64,000 bases of DNA, from sequence record AF234173.1. The stretch is one strand, 5' to 3'. The DNA comes from Escherichia phage P1. Positions 3,544-30,436 of this stretch are shown here, in pieces (the stretch's first letter is position 1; each line of letters starts with the position of its first letter). The translations under genes were made by a program, and so were the position numbers. The notes under the pieces are model-generated. The model was not told the origin of the DNA. It ran no database searches and was given only the letters and a program-made list of their open reading frames with translations.

Positions 3544-6456
3544 TTATGGTAATGCGCTCTTGATTAACTGATAAATATCATCATTAGCAAACTGCGTTTT
3601 GAATTCAACTTTAACAGACTGACTTATTTGATTGAAAAGCGCCTGGGCATGTTCAATTTTCTTTTTTTCTTCAAGCCGTAAACTATCCTTACTATCTACG
3701 TTTTTTGTTTCAATGATAAAGTTAAGATAATCACCTTCTGCTGTTTTTACAACATAAGCAAAATCGGGTGAGTAAGTGTATCCACCAGCTACCGGGATCT
3801 TAATAGAATTCTTCGGTATCTTTGAAAAAACAACAACAGACTGGATCTCTCTATCTGTTATATTACGCCTTTCAAGCTCTGAATCATAAAAAACTTCTTC
3901 AAAAAGATAAGTATCTAATGGTGCTTTTGAATTATCCTGTAATACACCAAGATCACTTGATAATACCTCGTCTAGAGGCTTACCATCAGCATTTGTGAAC
4001 TTTGTGGGATGAATTGAACCCGAAATCAAATTATATCCGAGGCTGAATTTATTAAACGAATTGTTCAACAAATACTTACTAAAACCAGATTTAATTTTTC
4101 TGATTGTTTGAATATTCAGGTATTCAGTGATATTAATAGTGTCTTTTATATCACAAAAAACTTTATGTAAAGTATCGTGTTTAACAAAAATAGTCTGTGA
4201 TAAGTTATCGAGAAACTCTCGATAACTCATTGTGTTTAGCTTAGCAAAGTCATCGTCATCACTAACAATGCTTTTCGACATTGCCATATCATTGTGGATG
4301 TAAATTTTATCAATGCGAGTATGAACGCCTGATTTGGTAAATCGTTCTGTTTCTTCGAGCATGAATGACTTGAAAATGGATAAAAACTCATTTTCACTGT
4401 TTATTTTGTACTCAATCACCGCTTTTTGATTGATTAATTCCCATAGTTCTTTCAGCTCACTGAACTTACCAACACGCATTTTAGTGCGTCTTTTTCCATC
4501 AGTAGCTTTTTTGATTTTACCTGGTTTCACTCCTATAGGGAATGCTGCTGGATATTTGGATTTTAAGCGGCTGTAGGCATCTGAATCTTTGAAATTATCA
4601 TTGTCATCAATGATTTCATCATTGAAAAGTTCATTCATTAGTGCTCTGGATGAAAGCTCAGGATACTGAGCCCTGATTTGTTCCTTAAGCTCTTGAGTAA
4701 ACTTACTTGGAACCCTTTCTTTGAAAGAACTCTCATTGACCTCTTTAACAAGTGAGTCAACAAAATCCTTTTCTGTAAAATCGACATAATATTTAAGGGT
4801 AAAATTGCGGTCTTTCACTCGACACATGTATTCATTCACAGGAAGACGCAAACCGCGCCCTACCTCTTGAAGCTTGGATGTGGTACTACCGCTCGAACGG
4901 AGCTTACAGATCTGAAAGACATTAGGATTATCCCATCCCTCACGCAACGTCCATTTGGAGAAAATGAAACGACGTGGATTATCTAAAGACAGCAAAAGCT
5001 CTTTGTCATGAAGGATTTCGTTGATTTCCTTCTCGATTTTATCATCCTTATCACTGTTATCTTTTGAAAAATAACCGCCATGAACGGAAGATATATCTTT
5101 AACTGTTTTTTCAAGATAGTTACTATAAAACTCATCTTTTTCTATTTTTAACAGTTCATTAGCTTCTGCCAAAACATATTCTTCGAACTTAGCTTTCAAA
5201 CTTCCGGCAATATTATTACCGTCACGATAACCTTCAATATCATCAATAAAGAAAAGAGTAAGAGGCTTTATGCGTGGCCTTTGTGTCAGAAACTCTTTTT
5301 CTAACTTAAAGTGTTCTTTGATAGCTTTCCTCATCATGCTGTCAGCAAGTGTCTGATCGTAAGAATAGGGGTTTATTGAGCAACCAATTTTTAGCTCAAT
5401 ACCATTACTCAACACTACTGTATTCTTGCCTAAGGCATCAAGAGTTAAATCGTGAATAGCACTATGTGTCTTAGATAGAGATTCACCTTTTGTTAACTTA
5501 AATAAAGTTTTCTTGTTATTTTCATTTAGCTCAAATGTAACTTCTTCCCCATCAGATTTAATGAACTTTAGGTTGGCGTCACCATCACCAACAATATCCT
5601 CAATGTACGCATCAATACCTTTAACAAGGTCTTCATTAAATGCATCCACAGCTGTAAGTCGATAAACTAAATTCTTATAGCCTTCACTAAAGGTCGCACC
5701 GTAGCGGATAATATATTGAGCATTAAACTTCTCTATATTTTCCCATGTCTTTTTACCAGTAGGAAATTTATGTGGTTCATCAATGATAATGAATGGTTTT
5801 ACCGCACCAAGAGCTGAAAAGGGAGAATCAAAATGATTGTCAAGCAAGCCAACATCATAAGTGGAATTTAAATTCTTAGAGTGAATCATTCCCGTGTTAA
5901 TAACAAGAACGTGTATATATTTCTTATTGAAATTACTAGCTTCAACAAAATCATGTATAGCTTGAGGCATATACGATTTTGTGCTTTTACCGGCATTTTT
6001 CTGACTTTCAACAACGTAAGTCTTTATTTCACGCTCATAATCATCTCTAAAGTGTTCTTTTAACGCATCGCTTTTCAAAAAGTTCACTGTTCCAGCTTTG
6101 ATCGATAGAGTAGGAACAATAATGATAAACTTATTAATGCCAAATGATTTGTTCAGATCAAAAATTGTTTTAGTGTAGGTATACGTTTTACCTGTACCTG
6201 TCTCCATAGAAACATCAATTACGTTGCTTCTAGCATCGTAATTATTTTTTACATGTTCAATACCATTGAGTTCCTGAACTTTTTTTATATTTTTATAGTA
6301 TTGCTGTTCAGTAAGCCGTAATTCTGGATTAACTAACAGGCGAATAGAAACATTATCCTCCTGATGAGATGTCGCGGAAACAAAAACGTTCATCACCGCA
6401 TCGACACCTGCTTTCTGATGCGGTAAGTTCTTTTCGAATGTGAACCCTTTTGACAT
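3544..6456 (-). CDS. res: Type III restriction enzyme Res subunit (EcoP1I-like)
   Basis: 970-aa AT-rich ORF with helicase-type motifs, ATG at 6456; size and position match P1 res. Confidence 0.93.
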   Translation of the reverse strand: MSKGFTFEKNLPHQKAGVDAVMNVFVSATSHQEDNVSIRLLVNPELRLTEQQYYKNIKKVQELNGIEHVKNNYDARSNVIDVSMETGTGKTYTYTKTIFDLNKSFGINKFIIIVPTLSIKAGTVNFLKSDALKEHFRDDYEREIKTYVVESQKNAGKSTKSYMPQAIHDFVEASNFNKKYIHVLVINTGMIHSKNLNSTYDVGLLDNHFDSPFSALGAVKPFIIIDEPHKFPTGKKTWENIEKFNAQYIIRYGATFSEGYKNLVYRLTAVDAFNEDLVKGIDAYIEDIVGDGDANLKFIKSDGEEVTFELNENNKKTLFKLTKGESLSKTHSAIHDLTLDALGKNTVVLSNGIELKIGCSINPYSYDQTLADSMMRKAIKEHFKLEKEFLTQRPRIKPLTLFFIDDIEGYRDGNNIAGSLKAKFEEYVLAEANELLKIEKDEFYSNYLEKTVKDISSVHGGYFSKDNSDKDDKIEKEINEILHDKELLLSLDNPRRFIFSKWTLREGWDNPNVFQICKLRSSGSTTSKLQEVGRGLRLPVNEYMCRVKDRNFTLKYYVDFTEKDFVDSLVKEVNESSFKERVPSKFTQELKEQIRAQYPELSSRALMNELFNDEIIDDNDNFKDSDAYSRLKSKYPAAFPIGVKPGKIKKATDGKRRTKMRVGKFSELKELWELINQKAVIEYKINSENEFLSIFKSFMLEETERFTKSGVHTRIDKIYIHNDMAMSKSIVSDDDDFAKLNTMSYREFLDNLSQTIFVKHDTLHKVFCDIKDTINITEYLNIQTIRKIKSGFSKYLLNNSFNKFSLGYNLISGSIHPTKFTNADGKPLDEVLSSDLGVLQDNSKAPLDTYLFEEVFYDSELERRNITDREIQSVVVFSKIPKNSIKIPVAGGYTYSPDFAYVVKTAEGDYLNFIIETKNVDSKDSLRLEEKKKIEHAQALFNQISQSVKVEFKTQFANDDIYQLIKSALP

Positions 6457-6502
6457 GATTAGTTCCTTACCACTAAATCTAACTCAATAGATTTTTTGTT
6501 AG

Positions 6503-7697
<1,195 letters not shown>

Positions 7698-9749
7698 TTA
7701 GCATAACTTTTTAGCGCCTCATTAAGCTCCCTTTGTTTTGCACTTTCAAAGTTACAACCATAAAACACGACTTTGTTTGGGGCAAAATCTTCATCTGAAT
7801 CCAGCTTTTGGAGCAACGCTTTCAATGCTTCGCTAGTAAAATTAGGTGCAATCAAATACAGACGGCCATTGCAAAAGTGTGCTGTATAGCCACTAAGATC
7901 AACATCTTCAATAGGTGTTGTTAACAAGCTACCATCATATACACACCATGTAGTCAATAGGGCATCATACTGTTCAGGCGTTAATACCGCATCATCAAAG
8001 AATGTATGATTAGTGAGCGTAAGTTCAGACTCAACTTTTGCTCTAAAGTCATCAATAGTATGAATCACTTTGAAACCTATTTTAGCCGCATTATCACTTG
8101 TGGTTGTGCTTTTTTTAAATACCTCCTGTATCCTTTTTTTTGTTATTTCAAAAATAGATCTATAGCCAAGAGAATAGGCATTCTTTGTTTTATTTATAAC
8201 TTCATCTTTTTGTATGCATATAAAATTCCTACAGCCTGAATCTTTTTCATTTAAATATGCAACAGCTTCTGCTGTCGTACCAGAGCCAGCAAAAAAGTCA
8301 AGAACTAATGAATCCTTTTTTGTTCCTATTTTTACAAGATCGGTTATAAGAGGAACAGGTTTTGGTCCTTCAAATAATTTTGCACCTAAAAGATTTTTAA
8401 GCTCAGTTGTCGCCGTGCTTGTACTATATTCAGGTTTATACCAAATTGATTTTGGCTTTTTAGTTGGTAGCTCTCCAAGAGCAGGCCGCTGTTTTTTATA
8501 GATATTTTTACCATCTTTTATATCTATTACTATTAGATTATAAAACTCATCATTTATTTTTTTCTTTCCCCACGACCATGAAAGCTCTTCACCCGTAGGG
8601 CTTACTGGGTAAAGTACATAGTCATCTTCGTTAAGAGGTTTATCATCATCTGTTACATAAACCTTATTTTCTGAATTGATGAATACCGGAAACCAACCTT
8701 TTGGTCTTGATTTTCTAGAAGCATCTTGGCCAGTACGCTTTAATGTATCAGCTCTTTTAAATAGCCCATATTCATCTTCATCCCACTCTTTTTCAACTTC
8801 ACTTTCATCAATATCGAATTGCCCCAAACTACAAACATCTTTGTTTTTAGCGTATACATATATATATTCATGCGTATCTGAAAAGCCAAAGTTATCATGA
8901 TTGCCTTTGAGATTCATGATTGTAGGGAGTTTTGCAACAAAATTACCTTGCCCAAATACTTCGTCGCATAATAATCCCAACTGTTTATCTTCGTTATCGT
9001 CTATGGAGATGAATATTACTCCATCCTCTTTTAAAAGTTCACGTGCAATATAAAGACGAGGATAAATGAATGTCAGCCATGCACTATGACTGCTTGAACC
9101 CTTGGTGGTAAATTCAAGTATGCGGTTAGCCTCATCAAGCTCGATACCTGCCAGTTCAGAAAGCTGTTCTGGTGTAAACTTGCGATCATCGTTATAGACG
9201 AATCCATCTTTACCCGTATTGTATGGTGGGTCAATGTAAATCATATTCACCTTTTCAGCATAAGCATTAACCATATGCTTCAATACTTCGAGGTTATCCC
9301 CTTTGATTAACAGGTTTTGACTGTTCTTGTTCTCTTCTTGTTGGTTATGTGTTTTATCTTCTGCCAACAACGTTTTCGGTGGTAGATTGGCCAACAAACG
9401 GGCATAAGATTTACCCAGCCAGTTTAAACTGTATGATTCTTTAGAGAGTTCAACCTCCGATGCTCTAATAATCTCAAGCAATTTTTCTTGAATGAAGGCT
9501 CCGTTTTTATCAAAACACTGTGGGAAATTAGCTTTCAACACAGCCAGTTGCTTGCTGTTAGCCGTTTCTACTTCGGAAAAAATCGTTTCTTTTTTCATAT
9601 CCATTTTAAACCAGATCATTTAGCAACAAAGCGCCGCCTCCCCAGCCCGTTAGAGCCAGAAGTTGTGGCACTATCACTATCTATATGTTTGAAGAATCGT
9701 GCTTCTTTGAGCGATGCTCGGTGAGCAAACAGCCATAATTTGGGGAAGT

Positions 9750-9998
9750 TTAATCCGCATTGAGAAGCAATGCATTATCTATGATGATCTGCTCCCATTC
9801 TTCGAATGCCCGGTCACGGACGCCCTGGGGAACACTGTTTGTTTTGAAATCGACGACCGTCCGCCATTTCCCGTCCGGACGGTACATGCGCAGAGCTTTA
9901 CTTCCCCCTTCCCTGCGCACCTCAACGTTATGCTTGTCAGCAAACTCTTGTAATGCTCGTAGCGTCCCATGCTTTACTGTGTAGTATCGCTTTTTCAA
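9750..9998 (-). CDS. lxc: Lxc/Bof-like small protein (C1 co-repressor)
   Basis: 82-aa ORF with TTG start preceded by GGAGA; TTG overlaps the ulx stop (TTGA). Confidence 0.65.
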   Translation of the reverse strand: MKKRYYTVKHGTLRALQEFADKHNVEVRREGGSKALRMYRPDGKWRTVVDFKTNSVPQGVRDRAFEEWEQIIIDNALLLNAD

Positions 9999-10435
9999 GT
10001 TTTCTCTCCAGCCTGTGCCAAGGCTTCAACTTCCAAATCGTAAGACTCAAACTCATAGTCCTGGTCGTCAACTTCTTCAGGGACTGGCAGTAAATGCCAG
10101 GCTGAGTATATCTGACCATTATCAAAACGCTCATGGCTGTAGAGCGTCGCGGCTATGAGTGTTAGCGCCGGGCGGTCATAACGGTAAAATTTGCGAACGT
10201 CACGGTCAACGAGACGACCGAAATTACCATAACCGCGCTCCAGTAATAATTTTTTAATTTCCGGCCAGTATGGGCCATAGCTGCGGTACAGGCGGGGATT
10301 TTTCAGTAATCGCCCGCGTAGCCCTGACAGGAAGAAATCAACGTATTCGTCTTCTGTCTTTCCTAACAATGCCGTACGCAGTACCGCCTCAAGATATGTT
10401 TTATTCGGTTTTATTGTATCAGATAGTGTGGCCAT
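9995..10435 (-). CDS. ulx: Ulx, small protein between darB and lxc
   Basis: 146-aa ORF, ATG start, 33 bp downstream of the darB stop. Confidence 0.55.
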   Translation of the reverse strand: MATLSDTIKPNKTYLEAVLRTALLGKTEDEYVDFFLSGLRGRLLKNPRLYRSYGPYWPEIKKLLLERGYGNFGRLVDRDVRKFYRYDRPALTLIAATLYSHERFDNGQIYSAWHLLPVPEEVDDQDYEFESYDLEVEALAQAGEKT

Positions 10436-10468: not shown

Positions 10469-13400
10469 TTATGCGTATTGTTGGATGACGGCCAGAACGT
10501 CCGCCACGTTGTGTTTTGTCTCGATAATCCACCAGTTACCCGGGAAATCGCTGTTCTTCGCCTTCGCTGGCAGCCAGCGAGCGCCGAATTTCGTCTTGAT
10601 TGCGTCTTTCGCACGGAAAAGAACGCCTTTCATGCCTGAGGCTTCCTGAAGCCCAAATACCTCGCCAGCGGCGAATTTTGGTGCGTACATCATCTTCAGG
10701 TCGGCGGTGGATACGCGATAATTCAGACCAAGAGACTGAGCTATGCTGGTGGCATCACCCTGTATTGATGATAACTCTTCTTGTTTCTCGTTTCTGGCGG
10801 CAATTTCTTCCTCCGTGATGTTGCCAAGGGCCAGGTTTATCCGATCAGCGTCGGCCTGTTTCTCTTCATCGGTGCGCCCGGCAAGAACCGTGTTAATTCT
10901 CTGCAATATCTCCACATGATTCTTGCGCATGCTGAGCAATTCCGGCGTAACCTCGTTAAGATCCACCAGCCCAAGGATGGCAAGGTCGGAAAACATTGAT
11001 ACCAGGTTGTAGGTCATGCGATAGCTGAGTTGGCCATAGGCTGATGGCAACTGCACCGCATCCATTTTATAGGCATCCATAAATTTAGAGCCGTCGTTTA
11101 CGACATCCGCAATTGCCGGTGTGATTTTCCCTGTGGTGGCGGCCTCCCTGATTGCTGTTACCCACGATTGAGTCAGTGCGGCGACTGCATGATTCAGATT
11201 GGCTTCCCGTTCTGCTGCGATGCGCGCGCTTGCTGCGTCCATTGCCTGCTTGATCTCGGCTTTATTGCTGTAAATGCCAATGGTGCCAAACTGTGCTGTG
11301 GTGATCTCATAATCTGACGCCCGGAACTCATGGGTACCGAAAATGGCATTGGTGACCTCAAGTTCAGAATCCCCGTTACGAGTAGCCCCCTGGCTTGTTT
11401 TCTCCGGCATTCTGGCGATCGCATCCGCTATTTTCTCCTGAATTGCTTCAGGGGATAGCGTATCTCCATATGACGCGATTACATCGCCATAATTGGAGCC
11501 AAACAGTTCAGTCAGGAATACTTCTGCCAAACGGACCTGGCGGTTATTCCCTTCAGACATCATACCAAGCACCCATTTTGCAATTGACGACTTCAGCGCG
11601 CCGTCACGGCGATCCGGGTAAACCGCATGCTTCAGTGGGTCCGTATAGGTACCAACAAAATCAATGCTATAGCCTGACTCTGTAGTCTGAACGCCGTATG
11701 AGTCAGTGATTTTGATCATGCCGCGCTGCTGGAAACGGTAGAAATCGTCACAGGAAATGATGTCGTTAATCCCGGCGATGGAGACGCCACCACTGATTTT
11801 CTGCATAACAGCATCTTCATCGGGAGTTACATCCACCTGTTTATCCAGCGTCTTCACATCCCAGTTACCCGATTTGGTGCCTTTGAAGGTAAAGATGATC
11901 TCCACGTCTGCGCGCTGGCTGTCGAAGTCCAGCGACTTAATGCGAACGATATCACCGGCACAATCGTAGTATTGGCCTACACGCCATGAGCGATCGCCGA
12001 TAACAAGGAACTCACTCGCATGGTTAACCAGGTCAGGATCAACATCCAGAATGCCTTTATTTATTGCATCCTCCACCAGCGGGCGCAGGCGTTTGATATC
12101 CGTCGCGGCCTTCTGAGTACGGTTCAATAATTTCTCATAGGGGGAGATGGCCTGAGAGATATTAGCCTTGCGCTGAATGGCGCTTTTCAACGACGCGCGA
12201 TACTGTGCTAACAACATACGGTCTGTGTGATGGACGCTACCCCAGCGGGCTTTCCAGTCTGCGTTATCAGCTGCTTTGGCCATTACCGCCTGTTTGAATT
12301 TAGCTACCTCGGCGGTGGTCTTTTCAAGTTCCGCTTTGCTTCGCTCTAATTCAGCGGTAAGTACCTCCACATCCTCGCCAGCTGCGTGCTGCGCCTTGAT
12401 GTAGTTCTGAAGGTCGATAGTAGCCTGTTCTTTCTGGCGAGCGCGTTGCGCGGCTTTCGCCTTATCCATTTGAACCTGCATCATTGCCAGACGTTCGCCA
12501 TCATCCTTAGCGGTATACATCTGCATTTCGATCATATCGTTGGCGTCGGCGTTCTCCATTTCAGACTTATCTGAGCGGAGGATATCGGAGATCCAGCCTG
12601 CTTTACGCTTCAGCGTCTTCAGTCGGTATTCATCGAAAGAACCCTTGCCGCAGTAGTAGTGAACGCGAACGCTTGCACGGTTGGAACCAACTCGGGCACC
12701 GCGACCGTTACGCTGTGCGATACTGGCTGGTGTCCATGGCAACGTCAGATGATGGATGTCAGTCGTTCCTCGATGCAGGTTGATACCCACCTCTGCCTTT
12801 TTGTTGCAGATGATGATCGGAGTCCGGCCCTCCTGGAAGTCGGCAGCAATCTTTTCCAGCCCGCCCAGCGACATTTCATTTTGCTGCGCGATATAGGCGT
12901 CATACAGAGCCATTTGCTCGTTGTATTTCGCTATCTGTGCATCTGTTGGTTCATCCGGTAACTCTTTCGGCGGTTTAACCGCTTTCAGTTTCTTACCGGT
13001 TTTACCTGCCTCGGCAACCGTCTGAGCATTCAGGATCCCCACCTTTGAAGGTTCAAGGTTAAGAGCATTGCAGATAATGCGCTTGAGCTTCTGGTGCTGC
13101 GTTTTTTCATCGGTGAAGATGATTTGCTTACCTTCCGGGAAAAACTCCTTCAGCGTGGCGATCAGCTTCGCGTATTTTGGTGTAACGGGGTGAGTTACGG
13201 TCTGTTCGTCAATGCCAAACCTGGCCAGGCGCTTATTCACTTCCTGCTCGAACGCTTCCGGAACCTGCAACTGAATAAACTCGCCCTTATCTATCAGGGA
13301 GTATTGCGATTGCTGCGTGATTGAATCATCACTGTCGTCGTCTTCGCTGGTGGCTTGTTTAGGCAAACTGTCCGCCAGCTGCTGCACCGCATCGGCGTAC

Positions 13401-16400
13401 TCCGGCAGGAAACGATAGGTGATCCGGCGATAGTACAGGTCCATGTCAGTACATACGCGGTCCATATCCCTGATTATTGAGAAGATCGGACGGGCTTTCT
13501 CGTGCTCAATCACGCCGTCTTCATTGACCGAGGTCGTTACGCCATTGTTGGCTTTGGCTGCCGCTTCCGCCTGCTGACGCAATTCTTCATACGCCGCCAG
13601 TTGTTCTTCAGTAAGTGGCGCATCCTGCTGGTGTTCGTCCAGCTCCGGGATCTCCACGGTATCCTTAACGTCTTCCGCTGTTTTAAGCGTTGTCCAGCGA
13701 TGGAATATGCCGCGCAGCGCATCAAGGTTTTCAAAGCCCACCAGCGCCATTTTTTCTTCAACTTCACCGCTGATTTTCTGTACCGTTTCCAGCCTGGTCT
13801 TGCCGAAGAATTTAACGAAGTCATCAGGACCGTAGATCCCCATCTTCTGCCAGTATTCTTTCGGCAGAACATGAGAAAGCATGTTGTATGCATCGATCGG
13901 GGTGTTAACGACTGGCGTTGCAGTCAGGAGAACCGGTCCGCGCCCGCCATTCTTTTTCATCAGGTACGCGTTTTTGATTGCCATATCTCGCGCCGATTGC
14001 GCCACCGCGCTGGTGGGCAGATAGGCCAGCTGTGACGCTTCGCGACCATTTTTATAGCTATTGCGGTAGTTGTGGCCTTCGTCGGCGATCACGCTGTCGA
14101 AGCCCATATCCTCAAAGTACGGATACTTCTCTGCTTTTTCGGTACCGGTATCTGAATACTCCGACAATACCCGGCGACGCGCCGCCTCTTTGCGATGGGA
14201 ATCGGAATCCATTGCGCTGGCTACGCGCCCGGCGGCAACGAAGTCATAAAGCATATCCTGTGCATGCTCATCTACGGTGTCATCACGTAGCGGAATGCGG
14301 GCGTATTGTTCTTTGGTAAACACGACTGCACGGTAATTTGAGTGCGGGATCGCATTCATCCGCGCCGTGATAGTGGCTTCATCTGCCAGCTTAAGAGCAT
14401 CGCGCATAACTGGAGTGCCATCAGTACCAAGAACAGGTTTACCGTTCTCATCGAGCACCGGCACCTGGCGAATCTGATCGCCATCCATCAGCACATCAAG
14501 ACCGACGAACAGGTAGTTACTGAATGCCTCTTCACTCAGGAACTCTTTTGCTTCGTAATACCAGTTTTCCAGCACTGATTTAGGCACTACATAAGCAGTA
14601 CGGGTGGAGCGACCGTTCTCATAGTTGAACGCCTCAAGCGCCAGCGCGGTCGTGGTTTTACCCAGCCCGGTGCCGAAGCCCAGGATGCCGCGCCCATCTT
14701 CGGACAGTCGGCGCACCTCGCTATTCTGGTAATCAAATGGCTGGCGCTTACCGCTTAATCCCTTCAACCCAAGCGGATCGCCAGAGTGTTCATACGGGAT
14801 ATTGCTATTGAACACATCGTTGTATTTGGCAACCAGCTCATCGTAGCGATCGTGCGTCTTGATCCACTTATTGAACTGGTCCTCAAGCAGTGCCATCTGC
14901 TCGCGGTAGCCGTTCGCCGTCGCGCTATCTTTGCCACCGATACGCGCACCATTGAGATACTTTTCCAGCTGTGCCGGGAACCCGGTCGCGTTTTCACCTG
15001 ATTTACGGTCCCACTCGTAGCGGATCTCGCCTGTTTCTTTATCCTTGCGCTGGACGACACCGTATCGGTGCCCGACGAACAGACCATCACCACCGTGATA
15101 GGTGTCAGAAACCATTTCGTCGCCTTCCAGCTGCACTGACTGCACATAGCGCAGATCCGGATAGCCGTTTTCCTGCAAAAATTCCAGAATGACGGAACGG
15201 TCGAACCAACGGCTATTGAGCTTAAACCGGATATTCTCTGCTGGCGTCTTGATGCGCTTCTCTTCGATCGCTGCCAGCTGATTAAGGACGTTGTTCTTTA
15301 CTGGACCGTCGGTGAGCGTGGCGAGGAATTCCTGTTTTGGAGCCACTATCTCGTTAATGTCGCCGCTGGTGGCGCGGGCGAACGGAACAATCCCGCCATA
15401 CGGTGAAACCGCAATGCCAGGGGTGCTGGCCAATAAATTAAGCAACTCGTCATCACTGGCTGGCAGTTCGCCGGTAAACGCAAGGCGGAAATCATCGAGC
15501 TGGATTGGATCGCGAGTGAGATCACTGTAGAGATAACGCAGGGTGTCCTGATAGCTGGTGGAGTCATAACTGGCGCTGGAATCATGCGTAACCAGTTTTC
15601 CTGTCAGCTCGTCAGAAATAGTGCCATCCAGCTTAATTGCACCACGGAAAGCAAACCAGGCGCGCGCACCGCTTCCCGATAATTTAGCTATCGGACCGCG
15701 ACCGGGGTTACCAAAACGGTCAATCTCTGCCTGCAAACGGGATACCAGAGAAAGGCGCTGCTGTTCGATTTGTTCAGCACTATGCCCGGCGGCCTTCATA
15801 TCCTGATATTCAATTAACATCCGGCCAATCATCGCCCCGCGATACAAGCGTTCACGGTATTTTTCAGGCTGGCTGTTAATCCAGTCCACCAGCTGCACCA
15901 TATCGTCGCTGATTGATGTGGTGTACTTATCGCGGACATTTGCCATCTGGGTAAATGTCATACCGAGACGGCCTTCTGTTGTAGTCAGGTTACGCTGAAG
16001 AGCCTCCCAGCTGTCCGCGCCATAACTGGCAACATCAATCTTCAGCTCCTTCCCGGCATCAGATTCAATCCAGCGACCACCAGCATATTTTTGCCATACG
16101 CCATTAATCAGGCGCATTTCCCCTTCATCAACAACATCTGCGGTCGGTGACGGTTCAGCCATATCGAGCAAATACCAGTCGATACGGCTTTCGAAACAAT
16201 GAATCAGCTTCGCTTTAAGAGCCTGGTTATCAATCTGACCGTCGGCACGAACCTCAATACGCCCCTGGAAGCCCTTTTCCTGGGTGCCATGAACAAACCG
16301 GCGGCCGTCCTTTTCAAACCACTTGCCAGAAATAAACGTTGGCCAAAGCACATTTGCCGATTCGAGAGTGCTTTCATGCACCAGGGGGATTTTCTCAGCC

Positions 16401-17236
16401 ATCTCTGCCGGATGTTTGCGCATCAGCACCACATCAACGACTGTACTGGTCCCGTTTGCGTCAAAAGTACCGGTAGGCAAGCGGTGAGCGCCAAGAAATT
16501 CAGCTTTACGGGATAAGCGCAGGCGTAACCGCTTCATGTTTGAACCTGAAACAATGGACGGCGGCACAATCACACACATGAATCCGCCAGGTTTTATCTT
16601 GTCCAGCATGCGGAGCATGAAGTAAGACCCCATGTCCGTTTCTTCTGCGTAAGGCTTATCGATGTTGCGTGTGTTATCACGACCGCCGAACGGAACGTTA
16701 CCCACAACATGGTCGAATGAATCGTTAGGCGTGCTTACAGCCAGTTGTTCGAACGGGGAAATCTGTACGCTGTCTTCCGGATGTAACAGCTGGTTTATAC
16801 GACCGGAAACACTGCTGATCTCAGTCGCGGTCATCACCGTACCAACCGGTTTTGTCTCATTAAAAACGCCGGTGCCCGCCGATGGTTCCAGAGTGTTACC
16901 TACGTCCGCGCCGTAGAGCTTCATGATCTCCCAGACACCTTCAGCGATCGGCTTTGGTGTGTAATATTCGGAGACGGACCCGCCAATGCCGCCTTCACCG
17001 GTGTACCCAGCCAGGATCTGGCGCTGTTCATCTGTCAGTGTCGCGCCGTCCACCAGCGAATTAAGCAAATCTATCGCCTTCTGATTCGCCTCCCGGCGCA
17101 GTCGGTCATAGCTTTTGCCTTCCACCTTTTCCACGCCGTATTTAATCGGCGCTCGGTGAGATGTTATTGCCCTAATGTATTTCAATATTTCGCTGACACT
17201 TGAACAGCGAAACACCCCCATAGATAGCTTGTTCAT
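10469..17236 (-). CDS. darB: DarB antirestriction protein: giant methyltransferase-helicase fusion
   Basis: 2255-aa ORF; SAM-binding-like motif LEPSAGTGVF and NVPFG near the N-terminus; Walker A GTGLGKT and DEGH box (VIADEGHNY) further in. Confidence 0.9.
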   Translation of the reverse strand: MNKLSMGVFRCSSVSEILKYIRAITSHRAPIKYGVEKVEGKSYDRLRREANQKAIDLLNSLVDGATLTDEQRQILAGYTGEGGIGGSVSEYYTPKPIAEGVWEIMKLYGADVGNTLEPSAGTGVFNETKPVGTVMTATEISSVSGRINQLLHPEDSVQISPFEQLAVSTPNDSFDHVVGNVPFGGRDNTRNIDKPYAEETDMGSYFMLRMLDKIKPGGFMCVIVPPSIVSGSNMKRLRLRLSRKAEFLGAHRLPTGTFDANGTSTVVDVVLMRKHPAEMAEKIPLVHESTLESANVLWPTFISGKWFEKDGRRFVHGTQEKGFQGRIEVRADGQIDNQALKAKLIHCFESRIDWYLLDMAEPSPTADVVDEGEMRLINGVWQKYAGGRWIESDAGKELKIDVASYGADSWEALQRNLTTTEGRLGMTFTQMANVRDKYTTSISDDMVQLVDWINSQPEKYRERLYRGAMIGRMLIEYQDMKAAGHSAEQIEQQRLSLVSRLQAEIDRFGNPGRGPIAKLSGSGARAWFAFRGAIKLDGTISDELTGKLVTHDSSASYDSTSYQDTLRYLYSDLTRDPIQLDDFRLAFTGELPASDDELLNLLASTPGIAVSPYGGIVPFARATSGDINEIVAPKQEFLATLTDGPVKNNVLNQLAAIEEKRIKTPAENIRFKLNSRWFDRSVILEFLQENGYPDLRYVQSVQLEGDEMVSDTYHGGDGLFVGHRYGVVQRKDKETGEIRYEWDRKSGENATGFPAQLEKYLNGARIGGKDSATANGYREQMALLEDQFNKWIKTHDRYDELVAKYNDVFNSNIPYEHSGDPLGLKGLSGKRQPFDYQNSEVRRLSEDGRGILGFGTGLGKTTTALALEAFNYENGRSTRTAYVVPKSVLENWYYEAKEFLSEEAFSNYLFVGLDVLMDGDQIRQVPVLDENGKPVLGTDGTPVMRDALKLADEATITARMNAIPHSNYRAVVFTKEQYARIPLRDDTVDEHAQDMLYDFVAAGRVASAMDSDSHRKEAARRRVLSEYSDTGTEKAEKYPYFEDMGFDSVIADEGHNYRNSYKNGREASQLAYLPTSAVAQSARDMAIKNAYLMKKNGGRGPVLLTATPVVNTPIDAYNMLSHVLPKEYWQKMGIYGPDDFVKFFGKTRLETVQKISGEVEEKMALVGFENLDALRGIFHRWTTLKTAEDVKDTVEIPELDEHQQDAPLTEEQLAAYEELRQQAEAAAKANNGVTTSVNEDGVIEHEKARPIFSIIRDMDRVCTDMDLYYRRITYRFLPEYADAVQQLADSLPKQATSEDDDSDDSITQQSQYSLIDKGEFIQLQVPEAFEQEVNKRLARFGIDEQTVTHPVTPKYAKLIATLKEFFPEGKQIIFTDEKTQHQKLKRIICNALNLEPSKVGILNAQTVAEAGKTGKKLKAVKPPKELPDEPTDAQIAKYNEQMALYDAYIAQQNEMSLGGLEKIAADFQEGRTPIIICNKKAEVGINLHRGTTDIHHLTLPWTPASIAQRNGRGARVGSNRASVRVHYYCGKGSFDEYRLKTLKRKAGWISDILRSDKSEMENADANDMIEMQMYTAKDDGERLAMMQVQMDKAKAAQRARQKEQATIDLQNYIKAQHAAGEDVEVLTAELERSKAELEKTTAEVAKFKQAVMAKAADNADWKARWGSVHHTDRMLLAQYRASLKSAIQRKANISQAISPYEKLLNRTQKAATDIKRLRPLVEDAINKGILDVDPDLVNHASEFLVIGDRSWRVGQYYDCAGDIVRIKSLDFDSQRADVEIIFTFKGTKSGNWDVKTLDKQVDVTPDEDAVMQKISGGVSIAGINDIISCDDFYRFQQRGMIKITDSYGVQTTESGYSIDFVGTYTDPLKHAVYPDRRDGALKSSIAKWVLGMMSEGNNRQVRLAEVFLTELFGSNYGDVIASYGDTLSPEAIQEKIADAIARMPEKTSQGATRNGDSELEVTNAIFGTHEFRASDYEITTAQFGTIGIYSNKAEIKQAMDAASARIAAEREANLNHAVAALTQSWVTAIREAATTGKITPAIADVVNDGSKFMDAYKMDAVQLPSAYGQLSYRMTYNLVSMFSDLAILGLVDLNEVTPELLSMRKNHVEILQRINTVLAGRTDEEKQADADRINLALGNITEEEIAARNEKQEELSSIQGDATSIAQSLGLNYRVSTADLKMMYAPKFAAGEVFGLQEASGMKGVLFRAKDAIKTKFGARWLPAKAKNSDFPGNWWIIETKHNVADVLAVIQQYA

Positions 17237-17258: not shown

Positions 17259-17302
17259 AGTGTTAAATTCCGTTCAAACACGATGTGAATTATTCTAATT
17301 AA

Positions 17303-20033
<2,731 letters not shown>

Positions 20034-22531: not shown

Positions 22532-22640
22532 TTTTTACTAGAATAAAAAGGGGTGCCAGAGAGCACCCTGATAATACGAAATTAAAGGGAAATAAATTAC
22601 ATGAAGTGTAATTCTTTGCCCTCTGGGTAATGACTCAAAC

Positions 22641-23144: not shown

Positions 23145-23338
23145 CCAACGCCATTCATGGCCATATCAATGATTTTCTGGTGCGTACCGGGTTGAGAAGC
23201 GGTGTAAGTGAACTGCAGTTGCCATGTTTTACGGCAGTGAGAGCAGAGATAGCGCTGATGTCCGGCGGTGCTTTTGCCGTTACGCACCACCCCGTCAGTA
23301 GCTGAACAGGAGGGACAGCTGATAGAAACAGAAGCCAC
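23063..23338 (-). CDS. insA: IS1 InsA (transposition inhibitor)
   Basis: 91-aa ORF with zinc-finger CxxC..CxxC N-terminus, recognised as IS1 InsA. Confidence 0.9.
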
Positions 23339-23526
23339 TGGAGCACCTCAAAAACACCATCATACACTAAATCAGTAAGTTGGCAGCATCACCTGCCCTC
23401 TGAATATGCAATGATGGTTAGACAAGCAAGATAGGGCGAATTAAAATTAATCAAGAGTCACTTTGTTAAGATGCGTAACATCACTTTAACACTTTATGCT
23501 TGTCATGATATTTGCTTGGAAGCCTC

Positions 23527-24243: not shown

Positions 24244-24552
24244 TTAATATACTATCTGGTCTACATGATCACCAAAATCATCGTCGTCGTCCTCATCGCC
24301 ACCATCTACAACAGGCCAATCAACAAACCAGCCAGCGTAAAGATGCAGCGTTCGGAGAACATCACTTGCGGGAGCATCAAGGGTGTCAACGAATCCCATA
24401 TAGCTATTGGGATTTGCTCCAGCTATGGCTTCAGCGATCATGTCCTCGGTAATGTCACCGGAGATAATGCTTAAACGCCCGGAAACTTCTTCATTATCAT
24501 CAAATTCGATAATGGCATCTCCGCCTAATGGCGCTGCGATTTTAATCTGCAT
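24244..24552 (-). CDS. Small acidic protein at the distal end of the darA operon (possibly hxr)
   Basis: 102-aa ORF, ATG start, overlaps the ddrB stop by 11 nt; acidic tail DGGDEDDDDDFGD. Confidence 0.45.
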   Translation of the reverse strand: MQIKIAAPLGGDAIIEFDDNEEVSGRLSIISGDITEDMIAEAIAGANPNSYMGFVDTLDAPASDVLRTLHLYAGWFVDWPVVDGGDEDDDDDFGDHVDQIVY

Positions 24553-27529
24553 TATTTAGCTCCTTTGCCACACCTAATAACAGTTCCAGCAATCCGTCAC
24601 CATTCATCAGTGATGCGGCAGCGGCCTCTTTGTCATGATACAACTGAAGAGCCATAGAGAATACTTCCGTTGCTGACGTTTTGGAAATAGTCGGAGATTT
24701 CTGCCGAATTTTCCCGGTGTTACTTACTGAGGCTGGCGGGTATACCTTCGCCATATAAATATTACTCAATCGAGATCTGAAGCACCATTCAGGCTTGCCA
24801 CGCCCACCGATATTGACGAAAGATGGCTTATCCCCTTCAACATTGGCCTTCAGGAATGACCGGGCTTTCTCTAACAAACCAGGGTTACTGTACTCAAGAT
24901 GATGACCCAGCTCGTGCCACAGTGCACTTGCATTTTCATCGTTCAAATTGACAGCAACAACACCATTAAGATTTGCATATGCCCTTCCCTGGTGGTGAAC
25001 TACCTTTGATAAGGTCGATATTTTCCCGCCGGTCAGGCGATAAATATCAGCAAGTTCCTTGCGCAGGTCTATCCCACCATTCTGTCCAGCGCGGACTTCT
25101 TCCACTTCTTCTGTGATAAAAGAGTCGGCCCACTCAAGAGCTTTTTCTTCAGATACGTATGAGTTTGCGATCGCACTGTTCATGGCAGATAACACTTTCT
25201 CGTGGACCGAACCCATACTTCGCTGATTCATTTGCCAGCGTGTCTGCGGGTTATATGAGAATCGCTTAAGTAGTTGGTCAAGCTGCTCAAGTTCTTCTTC
25301 ACTGACATACTTTTTAGCCTCACCAATAATGCCAGGGAGAATATTGCCGTTAGGATTAAACGCTCGCGAAAGGAAGAGTTTCAGTACCCCCATGCCCTCC
25401 GATGCTTCAATATCACCAATAACCCGGTTAACAATGGCCGCACTCTTCGGATTAGCATCCGCCAACGCTCTGGCTACGATTTGCAGGGACGATACGACCT
25501 CACGCTGCATATCAGTCCTGATCTCATCAATAAACTCTGGCGTTATACCGTGCTCTTTAAGGATATCCCGGCCTTCCGCCGTTACCCCATCGATATCACC
25601 GACATGTTTATTAACACGACTTTGCAATGCCTTAAATGCCTTCAGAATTCCACGGGCATCATCCGCTTTACTAACGGCCTTCCTGAATGCTGTCAAGAAG
25701 TCTGAGTTAACCTCATTTTGTTGATCGGCCCACTGAATGGAGGCATCTTTCATCTCGTCCAGAGTCAGATCACCCAACGCGGTATGGTCTGTGAATATGA
25801 GCGACAACCTCTGAACCATTTCTGCCAATGATGATGCCGAATGCGCCGCGCTAAGGAATGCTTTCACCCTGGTTGGGCGAATGGAAAACCAGTCAATAGC
25901 TGGTGGCATATCTCCGTTTTTTATCGCCTGCGCTATCTCGTCAAAGCCATCGCGCCCAAGGGAGGATGCGTGATTTAACAAGCCGCGAAGTAACGAATTG
26001 CTGATACCGAATAATCGGCACCATTTTTTCACGTCGGCAACAGGCATTCGAACAAAATGCGCAAGCACTTGTACAAGCTGTTCATCATGGGGATCTGTAC
26101 GGGAAAGCAGCCTGATCAGATGAATAATGTCTTTGATGCCGGATGCCCGATGTAATAGCAAACTGGTATATGGAGCAACACCGTTGTAACTACCGCCGGA
26201 AACGGACTCGAAAAGACCGCCGGATATCCCTTGCATGCCTTCGTTTTCCAGTTCCTGAGACACCTGGCGAAGGATATCCTGTAACGACACATCGCCGCCG
26301 CCAAACATATCCCCCAGCGCCTGGCCCTGGTGCTGTAACTCATCATTGATACGTTGAGCCATCAACTTAAAGGCGGTGGCCATACGCTTCGCGCTACGGT
26401 TATTCGCGACGATGAACAACGCGAGTGCTTTCACTTCCGGGGCCGTTTCGCTGAACATATCCCCCTGAGCAATAACATCGGTAATATGCTGGCCTGACTC
26501 CTTCGATTGCCTTACCAGGTCTACCGCATCTTTCAATGCCGCCAGCGCCTTTTTATCGAGGCTATCCGCTGTCTCAATGCCATCAACAATAGTTGTCACA
26601 GCCTGCTTGTGCGCTTCTCCTGATAAAGCCTGCATCTGGACAAAATCATTGGCTGCCGCATTAAGCGCCGTCAGAACATTACGCATATCCGGATCAGGTT
26701 CTTCTGCAACCATCCTTACCAGGCGCGCATCCTTATATGCCTTGGCAAAGATCGCGTTTTGTATACGGTCTACAAGTTGCCGTGTTGGTCGCCCATCTTC
26801 AGTTACAAGGCCAGCCGCCTGTGTGGCACCAACTTGCGTCATAAATCCGCGAATAAACGCGTCATTACTGCGGCTAAGCAGATCTCCGCTTTCTGACGGG
26901 TTAAAAAGCGCCATCATCGCCGGTGTTATGCTGTCGGCATCAACAAAAGCCTTTTCACTGGCTGCCATTTCCTGAAGATCAGAAATATTTGAGTCCTTGG
27001 CAAACTGAACGCGGTCAACCTTAGTTAACCGGCGGCGCACCAGTACCGGAGCCGTCATTGATTCAACCTTTTCAGGAGGTATGCCGAATTCGGTCGCATG
27101 ATCAATCAGGTACTCACGATACCGATCCGCATTGCCGTCCTGATAGGCTTTGATGATCCCCATGGTCCGTCCATTACCTGACTCAACGGCATTGTCCTCA
27201 CCAATTATCGGCGCGCCATGGCTGGATAAACCGGAATCGGTAAGCTGGGCAGGACGCAAATCCTTGGATATCTGGTTGACCTGAAGAAGACTGGATGCGC
27301 GGGTCCGGTCGCGCGGCTGAAGTTCCTGGGGATAGTCAGGGTTAATTTTCCCGTCCAGAGTATTGGATACCAAAAGAGCCGAGGCATCGACGATATCAAA
27401 CGCTGTTTTTACCTCGTCACCCTTCGCTGTCACCACATACGAAACCCGCCCGAAATCGGGCAGGTTCTTTAGCAGCTCGATCAGCGTTTCTATGCTGGTG
27501 GCCATTACCACCTGATCGCTTAAGCTCAT
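24542..27529 (-). CDS. ddrB: DdrB, large head-internal antirestriction component
   Basis: 995-aa ORF immediately downstream of ddrA/darA in the same operon. Confidence 0.7.
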   Translation of the reverse strand: MSLSDQVVMATSIETLIELLKNLPDFGRVSYVVTAKGDEVKTAFDIVDASALLVSNTLDGKINPDYPQELQPRDRTRASSLLQVNQISKDLRPAQLTDSGLSSHGAPIIGEDNAVESGNGRTMGIIKAYQDGNADRYREYLIDHATEFGIPPEKVESMTAPVLVRRRLTKVDRVQFAKDSNISDLQEMAASEKAFVDADSITPAMMALFNPSESGDLLSRSNDAFIRGFMTQVGATQAAGLVTEDGRPTRQLVDRIQNAIFAKAYKDARLVRMVAEEPDPDMRNVLTALNAAANDFVQMQALSGEAHKQAVTTIVDGIETADSLDKKALAALKDAVDLVRQSKESGQHITDVIAQGDMFSETAPEVKALALFIVANNRSAKRMATAFKLMAQRINDELQHQGQALGDMFGGGDVSLQDILRQVSQELENEGMQGISGGLFESVSGGSYNGVAPYTSLLLHRASGIKDIIHLIRLLSRTDPHDEQLVQVLAHFVRMPVADVKKWCRLFGISNSLLRGLLNHASSLGRDGFDEIAQAIKNGDMPPAIDWFSIRPTRVKAFLSAAHSASSLAEMVQRLSLIFTDHTALGDLTLDEMKDASIQWADQQNEVNSDFLTAFRKAVSKADDARGILKAFKALQSRVNKHVGDIDGVTAEGRDILKEHGITPEFIDEIRTDMQREVVSSLQIVARALADANPKSAAIVNRVIGDIEASEGMGVLKLFLSRAFNPNGNILPGIIGEAKKYVSEEELEQLDQLLKRFSYNPQTRWQMNQRSMGSVHEKVLSAMNSAIANSYVSEEKALEWADSFITEEVEEVRAGQNGGIDLRKELADIYRLTGGKISTLSKVVHHQGRAYANLNGVVAVNLNDENASALWHELGHHLEYSNPGLLEKARSFLKANVEGDKPSFVNIGGRGKPEWCFRSRLSNIYMAKVYPPASVSNTGKIRQKSPTISKTSATEVFSMALQLYHDKEAAAASLMNGDGLLELLLGVAKELNNAD

Positions 27530-27541
27530 CCGTGTTACGCC

Positions 27542-27907
27542 TTATGCTGCCTCTTTAATGTTGGCGGCTATCCATGCCGCCGTGTGCTGTTTAACCTGGT
27601 CCAGGTCGATGTATATGCCAACATATTGACTCAAGTCCTGTAACGTACCGATAAATGCATCTGTGCTCTGATCGACGAATTTATCAGCCAGGAAATCAGC
27701 AACCAGTTTTGGCACACCATCATGTTCCGAAGGTTGTTTCTCCTCGCCACTACCGTCGCCAGACGCGCCGTACCCCATCTGTTGCATGATCTGGTCAATT
27801 TCATCGCTGATATCCAGCAACTCCATGCCACTCGCGGTAGCTGCTTTGGACATCAGAGCATCCAACTTATCGCTGAGGTCCATTAACTCAATAGCTGATA
27901 GTGTCAT
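27542..27907 (-). CDS. ddrA: DdrA, small acidic protein downstream of darA
   Basis: 121-aa ORF; start overlaps the darA stop (4-nt overlap). Confidence 0.55.
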   Translation of the reverse strand: MTLSAIELMDLSDKLDALMSKAATASGMELLDISDEIDQIMQQMGYGASGDGSGEEKQPSEHDGVPKLVADFLADKFVDQSTDAFIGTLQDLSQYVGIYIDLDQVKQHTAAWIAANIKEAA

Positions 27908-29823: not shown

Positions 29824-29824
29824 G

Positions 29825-30436
29825 TTAATTTCCTGCTTTCAGTTGCTTAAGACGACGTTTGAGTTCGCCATTCCGTGCCTTTTCGTTATTGAGTCGGCCC
29901 GTCTCCTTATCCAGCTTCGCCCGCAAATCAGTGATCTGCTGTTGATTGAAAGACACCGAATTCTGCGCGGACTTATAAGCGGCAACCACCTGAGCATTCC
30001 GCTGTTTTGCTTCTTGCAGGCGCTGAAAGTTGGATTTAACTGCCGGTTTCTTGTCTACCGGATTGGCAACACGTTTCGCTTTGGCGATCAGTGATTTCTG
30101 GAATTTTGCGGAGTTTTTGCGGGCCGCTTGCCCCATGACGGTACCAAGCGTCTTGATATCCGGCGACTGAGCGTTAGGAATAGCTTTTCCATTCAGCTTC
30201 ACAGACGATATATCGCCAGTATCGTTTACCTGTATGGCAAGAATTTGTCCGTCGCTAAGAACCAGCTTTGCGGTTTTAACTTTAACGCCATCTTTCGTTG
30301 TTGCGCGGTTGCTGGAGTCAACCTCAATTACCGTAACACCGGTTTTATTGATCGCCGTGATAAGGGATTTCAGCCCCTTTTCATTAACCTGGTCAAAATC
30401 GACCGTTGCATACTTATTTTTCGTCATCTGACACAT
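29825..30436 (-). CDS. hdf: Hdf, homolog of a DarA fragment
   Basis: 203-aa ORF; (VLSDGQILAIQV...RKNSAKFQKSLIAKAKR) aligns with the DarA central region. Confidence 0.7.
   Translation of the reverse strand: MCQMTKNKYATVDFDQVNEKGLKSLITAINKTGVTVIEVDSSNRATTKDGVKVKTAKLVLSDGQILAIQVNDTGDISSVKLNGKAIPNAQSPDIKTLGTVMGQAARKNSAKFQKSLIAKAKRVANPVDKKPAVKSNFQRLQEAKQRNAQVVAAYKSAQNSVSFNQQQITDLRAKLDKETGRLNNEKARNGELKRRLKQLKAGN

Follow-up and report, generated by a model that had tools for sequence, protein, structure and literature searches.

DarB of Escherichia phage P1 is a fusion of a methyltransferase and a helicase, which is supported by sequence profiles, by sequence matches to solved structures and by fold comparison of an AlphaFold model, and both of its activities appear, from the residues kept among homologues, to be under selection. 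As a mechanism we tentatively put first that DarB may be a DNA-tracking methylase acting after ejection, where we infer the translocation, the post-entry methylation and the coupling of the two. The identity of the gene, the domain folds and the invariance of both catalytic centres are established, while the packaging signal and the restriction phenotypes are taken from the literature.

The window analysed is a stretch of 64,000 nucleotides of P1 DNA (record AF234173.1). Its list of open reading frames holds a single ATG-start frame at the locus, which is identical (100% over 6768 nt, at identical coordinates) to P1 darB in AF234172/NC_005856, matches phrog_1685 over its full length and is annotated in the record as DarB, defence against restriction; the ATG is preceded by an AAGGA ribosome-binding site. 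The original prediction of a 2255-aa DarB in an antirestriction gene is thereby confirmed. This description is correct but already published, in the GenBank note and in papers that appeared between 2004 and 2022; the additions here are the family-wide catalytic invariance, the lineage-specific C-terminal third, the restriction-modification (R-M) linkage that is incidental to P1 and P7, and models of aa 1-830 and 1540-2255. DarB was discovered nearly 40 years ago, and the mechanism by which it protects DNA in cis is still called undefined in papers up to 2026 (Skutel et al. 2024, PMC12707154, Zaworski 2022), in agreement with the original prediction, which had described it as not fully explained. 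Once solved, the mechanism would account for an anti-restriction strategy of general importance and help in using P1 for delivery.

Table 1. Positions of darB, its parts and its neighbours in the window.
Feature	Residues	Positions	Strand	Basis or remark
lxc, mod, res (EcoP1I type III R-M)		3544..9998	-	annotation; downstream of darB, same strand
ulx		9995..10435	-	annotated; conserved downstream partner of darB
darB CDS	1-2255	10469..17236	-	ORF list, AF234172 identity, phrog_1685 full-length match; stop codon 10469-10471
Fast-evolving C-terminal region	1727-2255	10472..12058	-	beta domain aa ~1743-1860, then mixed alpha/beta domains
Coiled-coil-like stalk of three very long helices	~1579-1726	12059..12502	-	AlphaFold model
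SNF2 ATPase lobe 2	1451-1560	12557..12886	-	Pfam Helicase_C; SsoRad54 1z63; DrmD/DpdE partial matches
Motif VI QRNGRGARVG	1508-1515 (QRNGRGAR)	12686-12715	-	within lobe 2
Insertion between ATPase lobes	1201-1450	12887..13636	-	position inferred from Pfam boundaries
SNF2 ATPase lobe 1	831-1200	13637..14746	-	Pfam SNF2-rel_dom and ResIII; PDB matches including SMARCAD1
Motif III LLTATP	1103-1111 (LLTATPVVN)	13913-13930	-	
Motif II DEGH in VIADEGHNY	1049-1057 (DEGH 1052-1055)	14066-14092	-	one occurrence in translation
Walker A GTGLGKT	855-861	14654-14674	-	one occurrence in translation
Conserved middle region	296-830	14747..16351	-	mixed small beta sheets and helical bundles
N6-adenine DNA methyltransferase domain, gamma-class	86-295	16352..16981	-	
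Motif IV NVPFG	180-184	16685-16699	-	one occurrence in translation
Motif I LEPSAGTGVF	116-125	16862-16891	-	one occurrence in translation
Motif X EYYTPKP		16949-16969	-	within methyltransferase domain
N-terminal helical region before methyltransferase (LPD36)	31-85	16982..17146	-	model helices; PMC5512222
Capsid-targeting sequence	1-30	17147..17236	-	
PdarB, predicted sigma-70 promoter		17292..17322	-	annotation only; divergent from prt/pro
hdf-darA-ddrA-ddrB, other Dar genes		24542..30436	-	annotation

Catalytic modules and their conservation

The original prediction had read LEPSAGTGVF as a SAM-binding-like and NVPFG as an amino-methyltransferase-like motif, and had proposed a HMMER/Pfam domain search as a check. 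In that search both the methyltransferase and the helicase families pass their curated cut-offs, so the motifs are no chance occurrences. For the methyltransferase, N6_Mtase (PF02384) and Eco57I (PF07669) each score 31.6 bits (curated cut-offs 20.4 and 25.3, respectively), and the HMMER alignment with EcoKI HsdM agrees, placing NVPFG opposite NPPFG and LEPSAGTGVF opposite QDPAAGTAGF. The motifs follow the gamma order X-I-IV (T93-P94, E117..G121.G123, N180-V-P-F183), with V replacing the first P of the canonical NPPF/Y in motif IV. The AlphaFold model has a class I SAM-methyltransferase fold nearest to the DNA adenine methylases, and the closest solved relatives, by sequence and fold, are BsaXI, V. 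vulnificus HsdM, StySJI and EcoKI. No target-recognition domain is detectable in DarB by Pfam, PDB profile search or fold comparison, with about 1200 residues being without annotation.

The Walker A and DEGH motifs, which had been called typical of SF2 helicases, stand as predicted, and the assignment can be refined, since motif III (LLTATPVVN, aligned to LLTGTPVQN of SMARCAD1) and the best PDB relatives (SMARCAD1, SsoRad54, INO80) point specifically to an SNF2-like ATPase, by family precedent probably a dsDNA translocase. The whole SNF2-family region spans aa ~831-1560, with Pfam scores of 41.3 bits for SNF2-rel_dom (cut-off 24.9, E 1.3e-10), 25.1 for ResIII (cut-off 22.5) and 27.7 for Helicase_C (cut-off 23.5). 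Motifs I (GxGKT), II (DExH), III (LTGTPxxN-like) and VI (QxxGRxxR) are all present, with their key residues invariant. The inter-lobe insertion, about 250 aa by Pfam boundaries, contains an acidic run and a Lys-rich stretch, is patchily conserved (0.33-0.58) and gave no Pfam family match at E<=5; helical inserts are typical of SWI2/SNF2 proteins (Iyer 2017, PMC5512222).

Conservation was assessed on 27 full-length DarB homologues, at 38-85% identity. All 27 keep the SAM-binding, NVPF, Walker A, DEGH and motif VI residues unchanged, as they do T93-P94 of motif X and, in lobe 1, G857, G859, K860, D1052, E1053, H1055 and A1106-T-P1108; the invariant stretch Q1508-R1515 is the most conserved block of DarB (0.76-0.77). 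The C-terminal third, in turn, has diverged to 16-39% among the same homologues. Invariant catalytic residues beside such a diverged third argue that DarB needs both SAM-dependent catalysis and ATP hydrolysis.

Outside the two enzymes, about 55% of DarB matches no known family. Pfam at E<=5 on aa 1-85, 296-830, 1201-1450 and 1560-2255 returned noise only, with no match for aa 1-85, the 27-sequence alignment, searched as a profile against the PDB, returned methyltransferase, SNF2 and coiled-coil matches and nothing else, and Foldseek against BFVD gave TM <=0.12. Residues 1-50 are poorly conserved (0.34), whereas aa 31-85, for which the structure model predicts helices, carry the glycine-rich GYTGEGGIGG, with G80, G82 and G83 invariant in all 27 homologues. 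The AlphaFold stalk helices (40-80, 84-126 and 131-187 in model numbering, pLDDT ~90) match coiled-coil or helical-bundle segments only. The C-terminal third is a fast-evolving orphan module found only in DarB-type proteins.

Packaging, restriction phenotype and possible mechanisms

It is already known that DarB carries an N-terminal capsid-targeting sequence, is packaged in the head, each virion holding about 40 copies, is ejected together with the DNA and acts only in cis (PMC9024508, PMC12810830, PMC12707154). Its incorporation needs hdf-darA-ddrA-ddrB (PMC9024508, PMC12810830), and Ulx is a virion protein that aids its localisation (PMC9024508). DarB protects against EcoK and EcoB, the recognition sequences of which differ, while protection against EcoA needs DarA/DdrA (PMC9024508, PMC12810830). 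The 64 kb hold 5 EcoKI sites (8.6 expected) and 12 EcoBI sites (9.9 expected), so that avoidance of either site by P1 is rejected; as the sites are not avoided, P1 needs active protection.

The proposal that we favour starts from DarB as a head-packaged effector that residues 1-30 direct to the capsid, that depends on DarA/Hdf/DdrB/Ulx for its incorporation and that is ejected with the DNA. In the cytoplasm, which supplies both ATP and SAM, it would engage the entering duplex, its SNF2 motor would track the dsDNA without unwinding, and the fused gamma-class methyltransferase would deposit N6-methyladenine, so that sites of the EcoK/EcoB family (type IA) would be hemimethylated at the least by the time the host enzyme is committed to restriction. 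Protection could be limited to cis because a few processive DarB molecules stay on the DNA they arrived with. A translocating-methylase model for the methyltransferase-SNF2 dyad was already proposed by Iyer et al. 2017 (PMC5512222). The identity with P1 DarB, the invariance of the key catalytic residues of both modules, the EcoKI and EcoBI sites that P1 does not avoid, the gamma order of motifs X, I and IV, the R-M adenine methylases as closest solved relatives, the SNF2 assignment of the motor and the recurrence of the dyad in 131 phage records of many phyla all speak for the tracking methylase, as do, from the literature, the cis-only action, co-ejection, copy number and capsid targeting. 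Against it stand the non-canonical motif IV (NVPF), the lack of a detectable target-recognition domain, and the expectation that an unspecific adenine methylase should block EcoA too, whose defeat depends on DarA/DdrA; moreover, no report of demonstrated DarB methylation or translocation was found in the literature searched.

The textbook description in reviews, which the cis-only action also fits, is that DarB and the other Dar proteins coat or mask the entering DNA, the enzyme-like domains being vestigial. We consider this improbable, since 94 kb is too long for some 40 copies to coat, and since both enzymes keep their catalytic residues unchanged, in contrast to the drifting non-catalytic regions.

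Alternatively, the protection could be an effect of DNA and not of protein, with the Chi-rich darB sequence triggering ClpXP-dependent restriction alleviation; darB alone holds 11 Chi sites and the window 29 (1.5 expected). Dar is, however, said (Iida, in 1987) to act strictly in cis and to protect transduced DNA too, which counts against such an effect. Plasmid-borne darB fragments do relieve EcoKI restriction via Chi and EcoKI sites, independently of protein (Skutel 2024), but restriction alleviation works in trans while Dar is strictly cis (PMC12707154), and DarB is present in virions, where its packaging requires other Dar proteins, the loss of which has the same phenotypic effect (PMC9024508, PMC12810830). 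A DNA effect is therefore very improbable. Plasmid-borne catalytic mutants also still relieved restriction (Skutel et al. 2024); since this assay turned out to reflect a DNA artefact, the result is uninformative on the tracking methylase.

A stronger competitor, albeit a rather unlikely one, relies on the motor: DarB would remain on the incoming DNA, where its SNF2 ATPase would evict, stall or out-compete translocating type IA restriction complexes, as a remodeller or roadblock, and the HsdM-like domain would provide a DNA or base-flipping contact, or recognise the host enzyme, instead of carrying out protective methylation. Members of the SNF2 family, such as RapA, Mot1 and the chromatin remodellers, displace proteins from DNA, which favours this reading. 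It also fits that the specificity of DarB tracks the restriction family (EcoK/EcoB, not EcoA) and not the recognition sequence (PMC9024508, PMC12810830), that type I HsdM, including EcoKI M, gives the best PDB sequence matches of the methyltransferase, that the fast-evolving C-terminal third resembles an arms-race interface, and that Zaworski 2022 suggests interference with the integrity of restriction assembly. If methyl transfer were dispensable, however, the invariance of motifs I and IV in all 27 homologues would be unnecessary.

The methylase could instead borrow its specificity, by docking on the host type IA HsdS or M2S core, so that precisely the sites of the resident system become methylated on the incoming DNA. 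Its top relatives (BsaXI, V. vulnificus HsdM, StySJI and EcoKI) all take their specificity from a separate S subunit, no target-recognition domain was detected anywhere in DarB, and such docking would explain protection against EcoK and EcoB, with their unrelated sites, but not against family IB EcoA. Nevertheless, a domain undetected in about 1200 unannotated residues is weak evidence, the identity to HsdM is just 16-18% and confined to the catalytic core, and DarB-type proteins occur in distant phyla, in hosts with many different R-M repertoires. We regard it as no more probable than the masking of DNA. Marginally less improbable, though still unlikely, is the broader idea that the methylase is an HsdM-like catalytic module without its own recognition domain which engages the host type IA machinery, either borrowing HsdS or stripping the complex by the SNF2 motor; this engagement would account for the same EcoK/EcoB range without EcoA and, if true, would make the fast-evolving, lineage-restricted C-terminal third the interface with the host enzyme.

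Gene neighbourhood

By annotation, the predicted darB-ulx-lxc-mod-res order on one strand is correct, the strand being the minus strand, and ulx, hdf, darA, ddrA and ddrB are all annotated within the window. The further suggestion that an anti-restriction factor is linked to the phage's own R-M system applies to P1 and to P7, which has the same gene order with mod intact, but not as a conserved design, which we reject: beside darB, phage D6 and the phage-plasmids of Enterobacter and Aeromonas lack mod-res and keep ulx as the only neighbour, and mod is inactivated in this strain by IS5 (7652-8846, annotation). A ulx homologue directly follows darB in elements of Enterobacter soli (46% identity) and Aeromonas salmonicida (35%), in D6 and in P7. 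A portal-pro pair is usually near darB-ulx, and the Aeromonas element has DarA and DdrB homologues near darB.

Comparison with known systems

In type ISP enzymes (LlaGI/LlaBIII) an Mrr nuclease forms the N terminus, the motor precedes the methylase and there is a defined target-recognition domain, unlike in DarB, in which the domain order is reversed and neither a nuclease nor a recognition domain was detected; with no nuclease family matched in Pfam, NCBIfam or PADLOC, membership in type ISP or type III R-M is rejected. The closest solved methyltransferase relatives, type I HsdM (EcoKI M, V. vulnificus HsdM) and BsaXI, align at motifs I and IV, whereas DarB belongs to no HsdMSR complex and carries an SNF2 motor in its own chain instead of having HsdR as a partner. 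DrmD of DISARM, DpdE of Dpd and ZorD of Zorya have SNF2-like lobes like those of DarB and in conflict systems frequently come paired with adenine methylases, but they are components of host defence while DarB is virion cargo; the DrmD and DpdE profiles match the C-lobe only and score far below their cut-offs (44.7 against 610 and 31.4 against 500), and membership in DISARM, Dpd or Zorya is rejected.

More akin are the giant virion proteins of phrog_10089 (Bcep22-like, Ralstonia, PBC5-like and other phages), which share the methyltransferase-SNF2 dyad at 25-30% identity and, like DarB, are presumed injected anti-restriction effectors; they differ in their length of 4000-4900 aa, in extra lytic transglycosylase or peptidase domains, and in having neither the P1-type C-terminal third nor a DarA partner. 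The P1/P7 DarB (AAQ13985.1) is the very protein that served Iyer et al. 2017 (PMC5512222) as archetype for the "DNA methylase-helicase dyad" among polyvalent proteins, with a helical LPD36, an EcoKI/TaqI-like methyltransferase with a TP motif and a SWI2/SNF2 ATPase with inserts. Injected methylase-motor effectors form a very widespread class in phages and conjugative elements, with DarB as its prototype.

Identity and domain architecture of DarB

By megablast, darB is 100% identical, at the same coordinates, to the gene in phage P1 mod749::IS5 c1.100 (AF234172.1 / NC_005856.1); an AAGGA ribosome-binding site lies upstream of its ATG, and the record labels it as defence against restriction, a putative DNA adenine methyltransferase and helicase. 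All four motifs quoted in the original prediction are present once each in the translation, and the two modules that it proposed, methyltransferase-like and helicase-like, are real, since the Pfam domain search exceeded curated cut-offs for both (N6_Mtase, Eco57I, SNF2-rel_dom, ResIII, Helicase_C). The observation is thereby confirmed and its methylase and helicase interpretation supported, for a feature already covered by the annotation and, in detail, by publications: Iyer et al. 2017 (PMC5512222) described DarB as archetypal for the "DNA methylase-helicase dyad" found among polyvalent proteins, with an N-terminal LPD36, an EcoKI/TaqI-like adenine methylase with a TP motif and a SWI2/SNF2 ATPase. 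PADLOC and NCBIfam gave only partial matches, which fall far below the full-length thresholds; the families matched were type I/II methylases and, among SNF2 ATPases, DrmD, DpdE and ZorD.

Positions of darB, its motifs and other features (window coordinates unless stated)
Feature	Position	Strand	Remark
darB ORF	10469-17236	minus	2255 codons, ATG start
LEPSAGTGVF	DarB aa 116-125		single occurrence
NVPFG	DarB aa 180-184		single occurrence
GTGLGKT	DarB aa 855-861		single occurrence
VIADEGHNY	DarB aa 1049-1057		single occurrence
Insert between SNF2 lobes	12887-13636 (DarB aa 1201-1450)
Chi inside darB	10745-17057	mixed
IS5	7652-8846
Target duplication of IS5	8847-8850		4 bp
IS1 copy	22626-23393
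ddrB	24542-27529	minus
iddB	26577-26975	plus
Acb2/Tad1 hairpin gene	6741-6977 (Enterobacter soli locus L002)		78 aa
MT-A70 methyltransferase and PhdYeFM/YoeB pair	1903-2679 and 6628-7129 (Aeromonas salmonicida locus L003)

The PDB sequences nearest to the methylase region are type I HsdM proteins, among them EcoKI M, in whose alignment NVPFG stands opposite NPPFG and LEPSAGTGVF opposite QDPAAGTAGF. The methylase comparison gave 19.1 for BsaXI, 18.8 for V. vulnificus HsdM, 18.3 for StySJI M, 18.1 for EcoKI M, 17.3 for the type ISP enzyme LlaBIII, 16.3 for TaqI and 14.1 for PglX, and the motifs follow one another as X (T93-P94), I, IV, the gamma-class order. No DNA target-recognition domain is detectable in DarB; that it works as an HsdM-like module devoid of one, borrowing the HsdS of the host, seems improbable to us. 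For the ATPase, the nearest PDB sequences are SMARCAD1, a Sulfolobus Rad54-like SNF2 protein and INO80, and motif III (LLTATPVVN) aligns with SNF2 LLTGTPVQN. On these relatives and this motif, the "helicase" is more precisely described as an SNF2-type ATPase, a motor which by family precedent may translocate along duplex DNA without unwinding it.

At E<=1e-5, 1533 relatives are present in the protein database. Many of them are full-length (2200-2320 aa, 37-85% identity) and are encoded on contigs of 80-120 kb, a size consistent with P1-like phage-plasmids, from Salmonella, Enterobacter, Pantoea, Citrobacter, Xenorhabdus, Edwardsiella, Plesiomonas and Aeromonas. Across an alignment of 27 full-length homologues, both catalytic centres are invariant: T93, P94, E117, P118, G123, F125, N180, V181, P182 and F183 in the methylase, and G857, G859, K860, D1052, E1053, H1055, A1106, T1107 and P1108 in the ATPase, with Q1508 to R1515 also unchanged. 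Per-block identity in this alignment is 0.57-0.66 for the methylase, up to 0.77 for the ATPase lobes, 0.27-0.51 for the middle region (aa 296-830) and 0.11-0.39 for the C-terminal third (aa 1651-2200), a profile that would be expected if both activities are required and the C-terminus diverges fast. The conserved catalytic residues speak against a purely passive occlusion of the DNA by DarB, as does its copy number, quoted as ~40 per virion by Gonzales et al. 2022 (PMC9024508), and we consider this explanation to have little chance of being right.

The insert between the SNF2 lobes, variable and gap-prone among homologues, includes a run of acidic residues (SEDDDSDDS) and a stretch rich in lysine (KTGKKLKAVKPPKELPDEP).

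Gene neighbourhood of darB

The single-strand order darB-ulx-lxc-mod-res is correct per annotation, and on it the original prediction had based a link between the antirestriction factor and the phage's own R-M system. In this strain that system is not intact, because IS5, with its target duplication, interrupts the EcoP1I type III gene mod; in P7 the P1 arrangement is complete, and the corresponding mod, of 646 aa, is intact. In two elements, one from Enterobacter soli and one from Aeromonas salmonicida, darB is divergent from adjoining genes of ~570 aa and ~320-345 aa, which by size and position would correspond to P1 portal and pro, and is directly followed by a homologue of ulx (46% identity in the former, 35% in the latter); lxc, mod and res are absent after darB-ulx in both. 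Phage D6 has darB-ulx without adjoining R-M genes, with portal and pro ~3 kb away. The proposed linkage thus holds only for P1 and P7; the D6, Enterobacter and Aeromonas elements lack it, so that it cannot be called a conserved design. What these elements conserve is the darB-ulx unit, which fits the published role of Ulx as a virion protein aiding DarB localisation (PMC9024508).

Other genes were noted in this region. The Enterobacter soli element encodes, ~3 kb from darB, a protein with the Acb2/Tad1 hairpin domain of the anti-CBASS/anti-Thoeris sponge family, which suggests clustering of anti-defence genes in this region of P1-like elements. The Aeromonas salmonicida element carries near darB an MT-A70 family methyltransferase and a PhdYeFM/YoeB toxin-antitoxin pair, and homologues of DdrB (ddrB-ParB domain, 1212 aa) and DarA directly downstream of darB-ulx, whereas in P1 these genes are 7 kb away. 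In the window, iddB is annotated wholly within ddrB on the opposite strand, and an IS1 copy with a mutant terminal repeat, per the record, lies between isaA and isaB.

Chi and type I target sites

The window contains 29 copies of Chi (GCTGGTGG), compared with 1.5 expected from shuffles, and 11 of these copies are inside darB; around darB in P7, D6 and the Enterobacter and Aeromonas relatives there are 18-20 per ~25 kb. The Chi enrichment of P1 is already known, as cited in PMC11109961, and underlies a plasmid restriction-alleviation artefact: Skutel et al. 2024 found that plasmid-borne darB relieves EcoKI through a DNA artefact, independent of the protein, which depends on Chi, EcoKI sites and ClpXP-dependent restriction alleviation. 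A purely DNA-based Chi effect as the explanation of darB protection is nevertheless most improbable, since Dar acts in cis and virion proteomics also argues against it. Site counts over the whole window revealed no avoidance of type I targets (five EcoKI sites, AAC(N6)GTGC, vs 8.6 expected; 12 EcoBI sites, TGA(N8)TGCT, vs 9.9 expected), consistent with P1 relying on Dar proteins and not on site depletion.

Protection in cis and comparison with other giant proteins

DarB is packaged and co-ejected, and protects in cis against EcoK and EcoB; Gonzales et al. 2022 (PMC9024508) placed its capsid-targeting signal in the first 30 residues, and listed DarB as an EcoK and EcoB inhibitor and DdrA as acting against EcoA. 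A 2026 cryo-EM paper (PMC12810830) located DarA and Hdf in the head, but DarB was not resolvable there. That cis protection is not fully explained, as the original prediction remarked, agrees with papers from 2022-2025 and is a long-recognised question, the Dar mechanism being stated as undefined by Skutel et al. 2024, a 2022 paper and a 2025 review (PMC12707154).

Iyer et al. 2017 (PMC5512222) proposed a translocating methylase on injected DNA, and we tentatively prefer such a model, at somewhat below even chances. After ejection, DarB would engage the incoming duplex, along which the SNF2 motor would track at the expense of ATP, and the fused methylase would deposit m6A using SAM, so that type IA sites would become at least hemimethylated and be treated as "self". 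Since a few dozen molecules would track processively, the action would be strictly in cis. The main difficulty of this model is specificity: EcoK and EcoB are covered despite their differing sites, EcoA is not, and DarB shows no recognition domain. A candidate target would be the adenine of GCA, a trinucleotide that the published EcoK (GCAC) and EcoB (AGCA) sites may have in common when each is read on its complementary strand. The family-level specificity, together with the fast-evolving C-terminus, favours a model in which the motor evicts type IA complexes or stalls them; we hold this to be a serious but rather unlikely competitor, since the invariant SAM-binding and catalytic motifs speak against it.

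Pfam found no family in DarB aa 1-85, 296-830, 1201-1450 and 1560-2255. For the last of these regions, HMMER, run exhaustively against 1.84 billion representatives, matched only 71 proteins, mostly fragments, and in all those of ~2100-2300 aa the match lies at the protein's own C-terminus; because of this, the C-terminal module appears, on sequence grounds, to be confined to DarB proteins of the P1-type lineage. In Bcep22-like, Ralstonia and other phages, the more distant "DarB-like" giant proteins have only the methylase-SNF2 dyad in common with P1 DarB.
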